Shown piece by piece: positions 59,353 to 63,701 of a DNA stretch of 64,000 bases. The position numbers and the translations under genes were made by a program. The notes beneath the pieces were generated by a model. The model saw nothing but the letters and a program-made list of their open reading frames with translations, searched no databases and was not told the DNA's origin. Positions within the stretch are counted from its first letter, which is position 1, and each line of letters begins with the position of its first letter. This DNA is from Promethearchaeota archaeon (GTDB lineage: Archaea; Asgardarchaeota; Lokiarchaeia; Sigyniarchaeales; SOKP01), in assembly GCA_016839585.1 (NCBI GenBank), contig JAEOTZ010000056.1:11016-75015 (forward strand), read 5' to 3'.

Positions 59353-60540
59353 ATGATTACCAAAGATAAAGTTAAGTTATGTGCTGAAAATATTGCCAGA
59401 AGCATAAATATAAAAAAAGATGGCGAATTCATTCTTATAAGAGGAGGTGCTTATTCCCAAGAATTATTAGAAGAGATAGGATTAACCGTTTTAAGAAAAG
59501 GAGGGATTCCTCATATCTCATATACATCAGATTACTATACAGAAACTATTTTTCAAGATGATCAAATCAAAGTTGAGACACTAGAAAAAACTCCCTTACA
59601 TTATCTAAAAATGATTGAAAATATAGATGCTTATATCGTTATCGAGCCTTTAGGGGATCCTTCAATTACTACTAAAGCACCAAGAGAAAAAGTAGATGCT
59701 GCTGCTAAATCTAGAGCTCCTATTCGAGAGATTCTTTATGGTTTTAAGGAAGAATATGCCCCTGGTAAAAAATGGTGCTATGCTGCCTGGCCCTCAAAAA
59801 AAGCCGCAGAATTCTATAATATAGATTATGATTTATATGAAAAGTTTATTGTCGGAGGAATGAGTGTTCCTTATGATGAAATGAATAAACTTACAAAAAA
59901 TTTAGGAAGATTTTTCGATAGAGCTAAGAAAGTGTATGTAAAGGATGAATTTGGAACTGATTTTTGGGTTTCAATAGAAAACAGAAAAAAAATTCTTGAT
60001 GATGGAATCATTTCAGATGAACAAATTGAATTAGGAGATTTAGGGGGTAATTTACCGGCTGGAGAAGTATTTTTCCCACCTAATGAAAAACAAGGTGAGG
60101 GTAAACTCTTTTGTCCTTTAACTAAAGATAGATTCACAGATAAAATCATAAGAAATGTTGAATTAAGTTTTAAAGAGGGAAAATTGTTAATAGATAAAAC
60201 AACTGCCGATACTAACTTAGAAGATTTAATTGCTTCTTTTAAAAAATGTGAAGAAATGGATAAAGAGAATAAAGTACCTGAACTTAGAACTTATAATGTT
60301 GCTGAACTTGGAATAGGGTGTAATCCGGAAATTACACGAGCAATTGGATATATCCTTACTGATGAAAAGATAATTGGGAGTGTACATTTAGCATTTGGAT
60401 TTAATAAAAGTTTTGGGGGAACCTCCGCATCCCAAATGCACTGGGACTTTGTAACTGCTCCTAAAGCTAATATTACTGTTGAATATCAGGATGGGTCCAA
60501 AAAATTAATAATGGAAAATGGCAAATTAACTGAAAAATAA
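59353..60540 (+). CDS. Aminopeptidase, M29 (thermophilic metalloprotease) family
   Basis: NLPAGEVF, AELGIGCN, DEKIIGSVHLAFG, HWDFV. Confidence 0.9.
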   Translation: MITKDKVKLCAENIARSINIKKDGEFILIRGGAYSQELLEEIGLTVLRKGGIPHISYTSDYYTETIFQDDQIKVETLEKTPLHYLKMIENIDAYIVIEPLGDPSITTKAPREKVDAAAKSRAPIREILYGFKEEYAPGKKWCYAAWPSKKAAEFYNIDYDLYEKFIVGGMSVPYDEMNKLTKNLGRFFDRAKKVYVKDEFGTDFWVSIENRKKILDDGIISDEQIELGDLGGNLPAGEVFFPPNEKQGEGKLFCPLTKDRFTDKIIRNVELSFKEGKLLIDKTTADTNLEDLIASFKKCEEMDKENKVPELRTYNVAELGIGCNPEITRAIGYILTDEKIIGSVHLAFGFNKSFGGTSASQMHWDFVTAPKANITVEYQDGSKKLIMENGKLTEK

Positions 60541-60556
60541 GGGTATTAGTGAAAAA

Positions 60557-61030
60557 CTAAGTTAATTTTTCAATATATTGGAGTACTTTTTCTAATACTT
60601 TTTTTTTAAATGTTATTCGGTCTGTCTTGAAATTGTATTTCTCCACAATACATTCTTTTTCATTTGAAAAACCAATAAAAACCAGCCCTATTGGCTTTTC
60701 TGGTGTCCCACCAGTTGGACCTGCAATACCACTAATACCAATACCAATATCTACATTTGATTGTATTCTAATATTTTCTGCTAACTCTCTTACAATTTCT
60801 TCGGATACTGCACCATTTTCTTCAAGAGTATTTGGATCTACATTTAATAGGTCTATTTTTGCTTGATTATTATAGCATACAATACCCCTTTCAAATACAT
60901 TCGAAGCACCTGAAACATTGGTAAACATATTCGAAATATAACCTCCTGTACATGATTCTGCTACAGCAATTCGAATATTTTTTTCTGAAAAATTTTTAAT
61001 TATCTTCTCGATTCTTCTTAAAATAGCCAA
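60557..61030 (-). CDS. pncC: CinA C-terminal / PncC NMN deamidase
   Basis: AVAESCTGG, GAS, GAVSEE, SGIAGPTGG..EKPIGLVFIG. Confidence 0.9.
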   Translation of the reverse strand: MAILRRIEKIIKNFSEKNIRIAVAESCTGGYISNMFTNVSGASNVFERGIVCYNNQAKIDLLNVDPNTLEENGAVSEEIVRELAENIRIQSNVDIGIGISGIAGPTGGTPEKPIGLVFIGFSNEKECIVEKYNFKTDRITFKKKVLEKVLQYIEKLT

Positions 61031-61039
61031 TTTACATCA

Positions 61040-61486
61040 TTACCTTTTTATCTCAAATTTTTTACCACATGAATTGCAATATTGCCCCTTTTTGCTCATA
61101 GGATTTCCACAGTAAGGACAAAACAATTTTGGAGAATTTTTTTTAATAGGGGCAAGTGATTTATAGATATCTGGTTCTTTTTCTCCAAAAGGTTGGTATA
61201 ACAAATTTTTTTCAACAACTTTCTGAAAACATCTAGGACAATACTGCTTTTTCTTAATAGCATAATAGAAGACATAGGGATTGATTACCATAAAAAACCA
61301 CATAAAATATAAAAAGAGAATAATCCCAGAAAAAATAAAAGAAGTTATAACGGTAATAGTGGTTAAAATAATTAATATCATAACAGAAAAAATACCAAAT
61401 ATTTTGATATTAAATTTTGGTCTTGTTGGAAAGACGTTCATTTTACAACTTTCACAGAACTTCATTTCGTTTATATCTTGACTCAT
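61040..61486 (-). CDS. Membrane protein with a split CxxC pair around a hydrophobic hairpin (LITAF-like) and a C-terminal zinc ribbon
   Basis: FCESC - 2 TM - YCPRC ... FCPYCG...YCNSCG. Confidence 0.65.
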   Translation of the reverse strand: MSQDINEMKFCESCKMNVFPTRPKFNIKIFGIFSVMILIILTTITVITSFIFSGIILFLYFMWFFMVINPYVFYYAIKKKQYCPRCFQKVVEKNLLYQPFGEKEPDIYKSLAPIKKNSPKLFCPYCGNPMSKKGQYCNSCGKKFEIKR

Positions 61487-61653
61487 ATTTCTCTATGGAA
61501 ACATTTAAAACAATTTGCTATTATTATAAAAAATACCATAAATATAAATTAATAACAAATAAAAATAAATAATTAAATAATATCTTATACTTTTGAAATT
61601 TTAAAGCAATAGTATAGATTTATTCGGAAAAAAAATTTTACAGAGTGATTTAA

Positions 61654-62222
61654 ATGAGAAATAATGAAGATAAAAAAGGCTTCGTCTTCAAAATCACAGA
61701 TCTATTGAAAAAATTCAGTAGAGTGAACTTATTGGCGACGGAGCAGTAGGGAAAACCTCATTAATCAAAAAATACACTCAAGGGAGTTTTCAAAGGGACT
61801 ACATTAAAACATTAGGAGCACAATTTTCAAAATATGATGAGGAGATTGAAGGAGATAATTGTAAATTATTTTTCTGGGATATTGCTGGTCAGGATGAATT
61901 CAATTTCATGCGTCCTACCTTTTATAAAGGCTCAAAAGCTGCTATAATAGTTTTTTCATACACTGATGATGATAGTTTTGACCATATCCCCCAATGGCAT
62001 GATGATATTATAAAATATTGTGGTGATCTCCCAATAGTTTTATTTGGAAACAAAATTGATTTAATCAAAAAAGAGGATTTAGATGATGCGAAGGCTAAAG
62101 AAATTGTAAAAGAAAGAAGTTTTCTTGGATATTATAGAACAAGTGCTAAAACAGGAAGTGGAGTATATAAAGCATTTCAGGCAATAATTAAAGAATTATA
62201 TTATAGATATAAAGAAGATTAA
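61654..62222 (+). CDS. Rab-like small GTPase, intron-split: join(61654..61699,61729..62222), 179 aa
   Basis: Spliced product is MRNNEDKKGFVFKITVIGDGAVGKTSLIKKYTQGSFQRDYIKTLGAQF...WDIAGQDEF...GNKID...TSAKTG. The track ORF (61908) lacks G1-G3. Length check: 569-29=540 nt. Confidence 0.88.
61700..61728 (+). other. Candidate 29-nt bulge-helix-bulge (BHB) mRNA intron
   Basis: Central helix TCAC(61694-97)/GTGA(61723-26); bulges AG^A(61698-700) and AC^T(61727-29); intron hairpin TCTATTGAA-AAAA-TTCAGTAGA; exon helix GCTTCGTC(61679-86)/GACGGAGC(61737-44). Confidence 0.85.
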
Positions 62223-62226
62223 TAAA

Positions 62227-62526
62227 ATGCATGAAGATTTTGGGCAAGATTATCCTAAGATATTATTTTTTTCATCGAATCATTGCGCTCCTTGTAGACC
62301 AGTTGAAGAAATGCTGAAAAAAATAAACATTTCATTGTTTGGAAAAAAATTAAGAATAGAAAAAATATTGATTGATCTTGAAGAAAACCGAGGATTTACA
62401 CAAGAATATCGAATCACCTCTGTGCCAACATTAGTTATAGCAGAAAAAAAATTAGCAGTAAACATTCAAGAAGAAGATATAATTGACGCAATTTTATATG
62501 CGTTTATAGCATCTGTAAAAATATAA
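62227..62526 (+). CDS. Thioredoxin-fold protein
   Basis: HCAPC redox motif and ITSVPTL cis-Pro loop. Confidence 0.85.
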   Translation: MHEDFGQDYPKILFFSSNHCAPCRPVEEMLKKINISLFGKKLRIEKILIDLEENRGFTQEYRITSVPTLVIAEKKLAVNIQEEDIIDAILYAFIASVKI

Positions 62527-62590
62527 TTTTAAATAAAAAATATTAAAAAGATTTGAATAAAGTAAGGAATAAAATTTTAAGTGAATTTGT

Positions 62591-63070
62591 ATGGATCGAC
62601 CACTATTATCTAAAATTTTGGCTCAAATGAAAAAGAATTTAAAAGAAGGAAAATCAATAGGAGATATGAAGGTTGGGGCTTTATTAGCTTTAGGACACCA
62701 ACTAGAAGCGATTTTCTATTATTTAGGACACGAATTAGGGACAATTCTAAAAGTCAAACAAATTACTGATGTAAACAAAATACCTGATGAATTAAAAAAG
62801 ACGATCTCTGAATATAATCTAGGAGATGTTGAAATTACAGATAGTTCAGATGAAATAGTACAATTAAAGTTGAAAGGGCATTCATCCATCAAGGATTTAA
62901 TTAATAAAGGAATCAAAACAACTGGTAGTTTTTGTTCATTCGAAGCGGGATTGCTAGCTGGAGTTGTAGAAAAAATAAGCGATCATCATTGCTTTGCCCA
63001 GGAATTAGAATGTAGTTTGCAATCAGATAAGGGATACTGTGAATTTATGATAGTTTTTCAAAAAGAATAA
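62591..63070 (+). CDS. V4R (4-vinyl reductase) ligand-binding domain protein
   Basis: FYYLGHELG, GSFCSFEAGLLAGVV, ELECSLQSDKGYCEF. Confidence 0.85.
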   Translation: MDRPLLSKILAQMKKNLKEGKSIGDMKVGALLALGHQLEAIFYYLGHELGTILKVKQITDVNKIPDELKKTISEYNLGDVEITDSSDEIVQLKLKGHSSIKDLINKGIKTTGSFCSFEAGLLAGVVEKISDHHCFAQELECSLQSDKGYCEFMIVFQKE

Positions 63071-63173
63071 GTTCAATTTATTCGAATATTTAACAAGAAA
63101 CTTGAGTCGAAAATTATTAATAAGTATAAACTATATTGTGAATATAAAATAAAACTGTAAGTTTTGATCAACA

Positions 63174-63701
63174 ATGAGCGAACCAGCATATATATTAAAA
63201 ATAGTTCTTCTTGGAGAGGCTAATGTAGGTAAAACTTCGTTACTTTACAGGTGGATCGAAAATAAATTTAGAGAAAATTACAAATCAACCTTAGGAGTTA
63301 ATCTTCTAAAAAAAGATATGAATATAACTGGATATGGTGAGGTTTCTGCTCAAATTTGGGATTTAGGAGGTCAAGAATCTTTTAAATCTCTCAGAAGATT
63401 ATACCTAGAGGGAGCTAATGGAGCATTATTGTTATATGATGTGACAAATAAAGAATCATATGAAAAACTTGATGAATGGATACAAAGCTTTAAAGAAGAT
63501 AGAGAAAATGAACCTATCATTTTAATTGGGAATAAATCAGATTTAAAAGATAAAATTAAAATTACTGATAAAGACGCTAATGAATTCGCAAAAAGAAATA
63601 AAGTGGATATAATTATTACATCAGCTAAAACAGGGAAAAATGTGGAAAAATCATTTATTGAATTGACTACAAAAATCTTAAAGAAGATTTCAAAAGAATA
63701 A
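63174..63701 (+). CDS. Rab-like small GTPase
   Basis: KIVLLGEANVGKTS, STLGVN, WDLGGQE, GNKSD, SAKTG. Confidence 0.93.
   Translation: MSEPAYILKIVLLGEANVGKTSLLYRWIENKFRENYKSTLGVNLLKKDMNITGYGEVSAQIWDLGGQESFKSLRRLYLEGANGALLLYDVTNKESYEKLDEWIQSFKEDRENEPIILIGNKSDLKDKIKITDKDANEFAKRNKVDIIITSAKTGKNVEKSFIELTTKILKKISKE

Follow-up and report, generated by a model that had tools for sequence, protein, structure and literature searches.

The stretch analysed here (the window) comprises 64,000 nucleotides (nt) of contig JAEOTZ010000056.1 (positions 11,016 to 75,015, forward strand; assembly GCA_016839585.1) from a Promethearchaeota archaeon (kingdom Promethearchaeati, the Asgard group) of the Lokiarchaeia (Sigyniarchaeales; SOKP01), whose own genome, designated G000, is a 3.45-Mb draft of 91 contigs with 29% G+C. 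It harbors a Ras-family GTPase gene that is cut into two reading frames by a 29-nt insert (61700-61728), for which a first-pass annotation, made from the letters alone, had proposed a bulge-helix-bulge (BHB) intron of the kind removed by the tRNA-splicing machinery. Frame reading bore out the description given there. The frame opened by ATG 61654 runs through the insert and stops at a TAG (61747-49), and the frame that encodes IGDGAVGKT contains the in-frame TAG 61719-21 and has no usable start: it is open only between this TAG and the stop at 62220-22, and its earliest ATG, GTG or TTG (61908) lies 62 codons in. Deletion of the insert joins a G to TT, thereby creating a Val codon (GTT in DNA, GUU in RNA) and an open reading frame (ORF) of 179 amino acids (aa) whose N-terminus is the one carried by uninterrupted orthologues (Table 1).

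Exon 2 belongs to the Ras family (Pfam, E = 8e-44; profile positions 5-160 of 162) and, as the match begins only at profile position 5, it is devoid of the first beta strand. Its translation reads through GDGAVGKT, DIAGQ, NKID and SAK, which we take to be the motifs G1, G3, G4 and G5, respectively. Thus, the predicted spliced product unites the Pfam Ras domain with all four of these motifs, the combination that delineates small GTPases of the Ras superfamily.

Table 1. Features of the interrupted GTPase locus, in window coordinates; intron and cuts are predictions.
Feature	Position	Strand	Remarks
Zinc-ribbon gene, upstream synteny anchor	61040..61486	-	in 32 of 39 orthologous loci
Exon 1	61654..61699	+	15 codons from ATG 61654 (MRNNEDKKGFVFKIT) plus G, first base of the split Val codon
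Outer exon-exon helix h, 5' strand	61680..61693	+	in exon 1 codons
Central helix H, exon strand UCAC	61694..61697	+	from the fold; 4/4 pairs in every class A sequence
Bulge 1 (AG/A)	61698..61700	+	predicted 5' cut after 61699
Predicted intron, class A, 29 nt	61700..61728	+	holds TAG 61719-21 in the exon 2 frame
Intron hairpin h'	61701..61722	+	61701-09 with 61714-22, 9 bp, loop AAAA 61710-13
Central helix H, intron strand GUGA	61723..61726	+	from the fold; pairs with 61694-97
Bulge 2 (AC/U)	61727..61729	+	predicted 3' cut after 61728
Exon 2	61729..62222	+	TT of the Val codon, then IGDGAVGKT..., stop 62220-22
Outer exon-exon helix h, 3' strand	61730..61743	+	in P-loop codons
TAG closing the unspliced exon 1 frame	61747..61749	+	product 31 aa
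Thioredoxin-like gene, downstream synteny anchor	62227..62526	+	in 37 of 39 orthologous loci

Folded at minimum energy, 61680-61750 forms a strict hBHBh' motif (outer helix, bulge, central helix, bulge, intron hairpin), in agreement with the architecture drawn in the first-pass annotation (central helix UCAC/GUGA, bulges AGA and ACU, a 9-bp hairpin and an outer helix). Its free energy amounts to -21.4 kcal/mol, as compared to -10.66 +/- 2.53 for shuffled sequences (z = -4.25; 1 of 200 shuffles equals it). The pairing corresponds to the strict form (9/9 in h', 8/10 in h), with the outer helix of this fold made up of 11 interrupted base pairs (61680-91 with 61732-43). By applying the canonical rule for the tRNA-splicing endonuclease (EndA), together with the junction found in orthologues, we placed each cut behind the second bulge base, so that exactly 61700-61728 would be excised; the proposed G + TT junction and the 179-aa product held when set against the orthologues, which read that very junction. 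The Rfam search (61300-62400) returned no match, and a short-query blastn search of the intron against its own genome listed its own locus and matches of at most 16 nt, with no repeated family seen among the matches listed.

A positional orthologue of the GTPase was present in all 54 genomes of the genus (74-95% amino-acid identity). In 45 of them the gene is uninterrupted (open frame of at least 179 aa): 30 were read at sequence level, and all 30 have ...FVFKITVIGDG (or ...IGNG), i.e. the predicted spliced sequence, and the remaining 15 were called from open-frame length alone. In the closest relative (95% amino-acid identity), which is insert-free, the junction ACAGTTATTGG matches the predicted join letter for letter. 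The other nine orthologues are interrupted, at two sites that are 2 nt apart. Class A inserts (29 nt) occur in three genomes, the window's included, with a fourth sequence coming from another collection. Class B inserts, present in six, measure 30 nt, contain an in-frame stop and have their 5' boundary 2 nt further upstream than class A. In all interrupted orthologues the four pairs of H are complete in precisely the register from which canonical cutting recovers KITVIGDG, and the spliced frame of each of the nine spans 178-180 aa with both exons intact. The comparison of orthologues that had been suggested as a check (presence or absence, and compensatory changes) is thus favorable to an intron, with both exons, the BHB pairing and compensatory changes present in the interrupted genes.

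Could these genes nonetheless be pseudogenes, disrupted by a neutral or harmful piece of DNA (e.g., a small hairpin element) that resembles a BHB by chance? The absence of the insert from most orthologues is in line with such an origin, and so is the abundance of BHB-like motifs in an AT-rich genome, where they are not enriched at ORF joins. Against it, the exons of all nine interrupted orthologues have stayed open and give 178-180 aa once the insert is removed, and the ratio of nonsynonymous to synonymous substitution rates (dN/dS) among intron-bearing genes lies between 0.05 and 0.11 in seven of eight pairs, at synonymous divergences (dS) reaching at least 1.3. The eighth pair (0.225), along with one intron-free pair, was distorted by an indel that was not realigned. 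These values indicate that the intron-bearing genes, as judged from their sequences, are under purifying selection; neither relaxed selection nor further disabling mutations were found in them. As the exact restoring register of H is moreover present in 18 of 18 cases (counting the genes described below), with hairpin and H pairs that covary, we regard the pseudogene explanation as highly improbable.

Covariation within the inserts points to the same structure. In class B, 85.9% of the cells are paired in the BHB register (100% in H), as compared to 15-68% for slid partners, and the exon strand of H (GAUC or GAUU) is paired with an intron strand that is itself GAUC or GAUU. Five of the 13 pairs have changed on both sides, a number reached by 5 of 500 shuffles. 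In class A, 98.4% of the cells are paired, with one U-A to A-U swap and one change of U-G to C-G. Class A alleles separated by a gene-wide dS of 1.3 have identical synonymous sites in the six full codons preceding the cut (TTC GTC TTC AAA ATC ACA); these codons form H and the outer helix, and they differ in the intron-free neighbours. We infer that exon bases may be under selection for pairing.

A further alternative is an insert that is kept in the messenger and bypassed by the ribosome, as in gene 60 of phage T4, or overcome by a shift of frame. The 30-nt class B inserts are reminiscent of a take-off and landing pair, for they are flanked by the same or synonymous Val codons (GTC...GTC or GTT...GTA) and hold a stop and a hairpin. 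In class A, however, the DNA lacks the Val codon, which arises only when G and TT are brought together, and inserts of 29, 31 and 32 nt have no matched codon pair that would give the sequence of the orthologues. As bypassing also leaves the pairing of exon with intron in H, and the covariation of these pairs, without explanation, we consider it highly unlikely.

Two further genes of the same genome turned out to be interrupted in a similar manner. The first, a second split GTPase (G000:C27), was found by tblastn of GTPases against the genome. Its central helix is GCGU/GCGC, and the predicted removal of 31 nt leaves TIGV-D-FHVK at the join; among 30 orthologous loci, 27 are uninterrupted and read TIGVDFHVK. 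The interruption occurs in four genomes, namely G000, G043 and G013 (of those 30 loci) and G015 (fetched separately); G013 and G015 come close to the strict form of the motif and have a pair of H changed from C-G to U-A.

The other gene, which encodes an E2 ubiquitin-conjugating enzyme (G000:C5), emerged from a screen for split genes by self-paralogy; exon 1 covers positions 15-56 of the UQ_con profile and exon 2 positions 55-139. The 32-nt insert combines an H of CCAG/CUGG, bulges cut as AA/A and a 9-bp hairpin with one mismatch. At this site 31 of 33 loci are uninterrupted and read FEIKFPENYPF (or ...PDNYPF), and G041 has a homologous 31-nt insert. A second site within the same gene carries a 30-nt insert with an in-frame TAA in G042 and G017, whose removal would give MMH(V/I)EPPFF; the hairpins of the two are perfect (9 bp) and different in sequence, and a G-C pair of H in one is replaced by A-U in the other. 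In E2 exon 1 (L152:919-940, minus strand, corresponding to G000:C5) there is no ATG, and a TTG preceded seven bases upstream by GGTGA is likely the start of the gene.

Altogether, 18 interruptions of 29-32 nt were recorded at five sites in three genes (two GTPases and one E2 enzyme), and all 18 follow a common plan: H of four pairs, a 3-nt bulge, hairpin, H and a second 3-nt bulge. By hand tally, pairing is complete in H (72 of 72 cells) and reaches 134 of 162 in the first nine hairpin pairs. In all three genes the join predicted from the canonical cuts equals the sequence of uninterrupted orthologues, and no interruption of these genes other than an in-register BHB was seen. We stress that the three genes were found through comparison of paralogues and orthologues, an approach that favors large families, and we therefore claim no preference of such inserts for eukaryote-signature genes.

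The insert is hardly a product of assembly or sequencing. While the genome is a draft of 91 contigs, contigs spanning the insert (61641-61781) were recovered from three DNA runs of three different studies with the 29 nt in place and no difference within it, and none of the contigs of these runs joined 61699 to 61729. Related inserts were moreover found in eight other genomes of the genus, plus one more in another collection, so that an artefact has a practically negligible probability.

The machinery named in the first-pass annotation as a candidate for the removal is encoded in the genome: G000 has two genes with the EndA catalytic domain (PF01974, 103 and 69 bits; in the regions C2:77426-77650 and C39:1832-2080) and one RtcB gene (PF01139, 561 bits; C7:4311-5618). 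PMC5829648 describes the EndA of Asgard archaea as an (alpha-beta)2 type with broad BHB specificity, and the two EndA-domain genes would fit such an enzyme. Excision by some other enzyme deserves mention, given that EndA cleavage of these motifs is a prediction in this organism and that several instances have relaxed flanking helices. Yet the boundaries at all five sites are those predicted from the defining features of an EndA substrate (two 3-nt bulges set 4 bp apart, each cut behind its second base), and both EndA and RtcB genes are present; we thus hold another enzyme to be very unlikely.

ARAGORN recovered only 18 tRNA genes from G000 (a genome rated 99% complete), 13 of which have introns (one of 1376 nt). 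By analogy with a 2026 preprint on Asgard tRNA genes, many others are probably hidden by unusual introns.

Considering the above, we estimate at roughly 0.85 the probability that 61700-61728 is an archaeal BHB intron within the coding region of a Ras-family GTPase mRNA, much as the first-pass annotation had it. According to the computed folding, the exon UCAC of the transcript would pair with the intron GUGA, with a 3-nt bulge on either strand, the hairpin of the intron on one side and the helix between the exons on the other; a heteromeric EndA would cut after the second base of each bulge, and RtcB would seal the exons into a GUU Val codon and a message for a 179-aa GTPase. The unspliced transcript would yield only a 31-aa peptide. 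We further think it probable, with somewhat less assurance, that the intron is one member of a population of uniform BHB mini-introns (29-32 nt) in constant turnover, which enter and leave protein-coding genes of this genus (at least three genes, five sites), being present or precisely absent species by species, and which are removed by the tRNA-splicing enzymes.

The maximum-likelihood tree of the window gene (39 rows) requires at least six changes of intron state. There, the window gene and that of G057 are sisters (98/91) and adjoin the intron-free gene of G043, and the main class B clade includes three nested intron-free genes. As this is a tree of the gene, recombination between strains could also have shifted alleles.

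Several observations weigh against the intron and its proposed population. With at least six changes of state, many precise losses or gains have to be assumed. Class A consists of only three or four sequences with little variation, so that shuffles are uninformative; the outer helix of class B is weak (4-5 of 10 pairs, i.e. the relaxed form only), and in the second GTPase the hairpins of G000 and G043 are weak as well (5 of 9 pairs), the motif of G000 being relaxed. Splicing itself is deduced, as neither a transcript nor a read across the junction nor a circularised intron came to light. The one RNA run compared (X20) shared 6% of the sampled words and yielded nothing on 61400-62400, which has no bearing either way. 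Genome-wide, a scan that demanded 4 bp in H and an ORF join, with no helix filter, returned 1283629 hits, as compared to 1312338 for a control with mirror pairing; tighter closure and start-less filters gave no excess over this control, nor did a scan specific for the architecture (L 26-40, at least 8/9 pairs in h'; 110 real versus 136 control hits). A BHB-like motif alone is thus weak evidence in a genome of 29% G+C, and the weight of the case rests on the exact register and on the orthologues. In the absence of an excess over the control, motif search alone can neither find nor count such introns.

Coding-region BHB introns in Archaea are known essentially from cbf5 of Crenarchaeota, where the intron was reportedly described by Watanabe et al. 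in 2002. According to Yokobori et al. 2009 (PMC2738675), the cbf5 pre-mRNA of Crenarchaeota has a BHB intron with lineage-specific loss. Both there and here a coding gene is split by a short BHB intron that is missed by gene callers and whose removal is attributed to the tRNA-splicing endonuclease. The present case differs in phylum (Asgard archaea), in genes (two small GTPases and an E2 enzyme), in number of sites (at least five versus one), in uniform length (29-32 nt) and in a presence/absence pattern that varies among the species of one genus; on the other hand, splicing of cbf5 was shown experimentally, and that of the genes described here is deduced from their sequences. A 2020 Haloferax study (PMC7714728) names cbf5 as the only further BHB intron then reported and places one in the 5' untranslated region of the Haloferax volcanii HVO_1309 mRNA. 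HVO_1309 likewise presents an mRNA as substrate of the splicing endonuclease, with an intron that sits in an untranslated leader, in contrast to the codon-splitting, coding-region intron proposed here.

Another parallel is found in the tRNA introns of Asgard archaea, which the 2026 preprint (in which the word mRNA does not occur) depicts as a heavy load that was repeatedly gained. They have the same motif, the same predicted cuts and repeated gains in common with the window intron. Here, however, it is an mRNA that hosts the intron, so that codons supply the exon portions of the helices and cutting has to preserve the frame.

In eukaryotes, the HAC1/XBP1 messengers are cut by IRE1 and joined by tRNA ligase or RtcB, the XBP1 intron being 26 nt long. 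They too have a short coding-region intron whose removal proceeds without a spliceosome and changes the frame. In their case, though, IRE1 acts on two stem-loops (as opposed to the EndA on a BHB that we propose) and splicing is a regulated stress switch, and no regulation is shown for the genes described here.

The literature searched (full text, with most subscription journals and supplements lying outside) contained no mention of BHB introns in protein-coding genes of Asgard archaea, in keeping with the first-pass annotation, to which no such mRNA intron system in these archaea was known. Within that literature the phylum, the genes and the multi-site, species-level pattern of presence and absence thus appear to be new. 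If the introns are real, mRNA splicing by the tRNA machinery would be more than a one-gene oddity, and mRNA introns spliced by proteins alone would still be coming and going in the archaea most closely related to eukaryotes, constituting a natural system in which to study intron gain and precise loss in a prokaryote near the eukaryotic stem. Exon codons would furthermore be constrained by their pairing with the intron. On the practical side, gene callers would mis-annotate such genes as broken, and inventories of eukaryote-signature proteins would be affected in turn, since they draw on Asgard gene catalogues that count such genes as fragments or pseudogenes; the families affected (small GTPases and the E2 ubiquitin-conjugating enzyme) are themselves eukaryote-signature and tied to eukaryotic cell biology.

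A number of other candidates were pursued within G000. Ranking the hits of the architecture-specific scan by hexamer coding score left 44 real and 44 control hits at the cut used; 16 of the former were fetched, and both exons of ten were run through Pfam, with none confirmed (six false, four without a usable family). Four candidates proved to be plain gene junctions (Lactamase_B/Lactamase_B, eRF1/Radical_SAM, Rpr2/EMG1 and L4/L23), and C29:12775 was rejected for having its own ATG within the supposed intron. At C87:29175 (G000:C87:28890-29452, plus strand) a histidine-kinase ATPase domain (HATPase_c) lies in two frames with no extra bases relative to its paralogue, and we ascribe the split to a simple frameshift or to faulty assembly rather than to an intron. 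Screening for long open frames that have no start was of no use (775 matches, mostly shadow frames). The self-paralogue screen returned 34 pairs, including the C27 gene found before and the E2 gene; its HdrA/MvhD-like pairs are presumably neighbouring genes (judged by eye, on a motif).

The candidate C29:39574 (L 40, a 13-bp hairpin ahead of a start-less GTPase) was discarded since the start codon needed for exon 1 is not conserved in 12 orthologues. The GTPase concerned (G000:C29:39053-39526, minus strand) is Ras-like and has a 159-aa frame directly after an in-frame TGA, and the P-loop is preceded by no ATG, GTG or TTG; interpretation as a BHB was attempted and found unsupported. The start-less state recurs in 11 of 12 orthologues (loci L203-L214), and among 51 genomes the frame mostly measures 158-160 aa. 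L209 has another codon in place of the TGA, and its frame is open for 15 codons further up, with no ATG, GTG or TTG in the stretch read. A conserved TATA-like AATATTATTTT and a conserved hairpin of 9-13 bp are located just upstream.

Within the window, the GTPase is followed on the plus strand (62227-63701) by the thioredoxin-like gene, a V4R/DUF2507-like gene and an uninterrupted Ras-family GTPase (63174-63701). Further upstream, an 11-bp hairpin with BHB-like flanks (60532-60610, plus strand; L 71) is situated at the end of the gene 59353-60540; it joins no plausible frames and is probably a terminator-like structure.

Elsewhere in G000, a GTPase (G000:C61:24480-24720, plus strand; …PIYIFKICILGQERVGKT) is without an in-frame start and has an ATG just upstream, 2 nt out of frame, which might be explained by a frameshift, an unusual start codon or an exon of very small size. 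Lastly, five paralogous loci (G000:C59:35916, C79:49302, C45:34078, C47:148692 and C90:31186) are cut into pieces of approximately 183, 450, 50 and 80 aa. Most of the breaks consist of one in-frame stop each (extra_nt -3), at alignment positions shared between the loci, a pattern that could reflect stop-codon recoding or a decaying repeated element.

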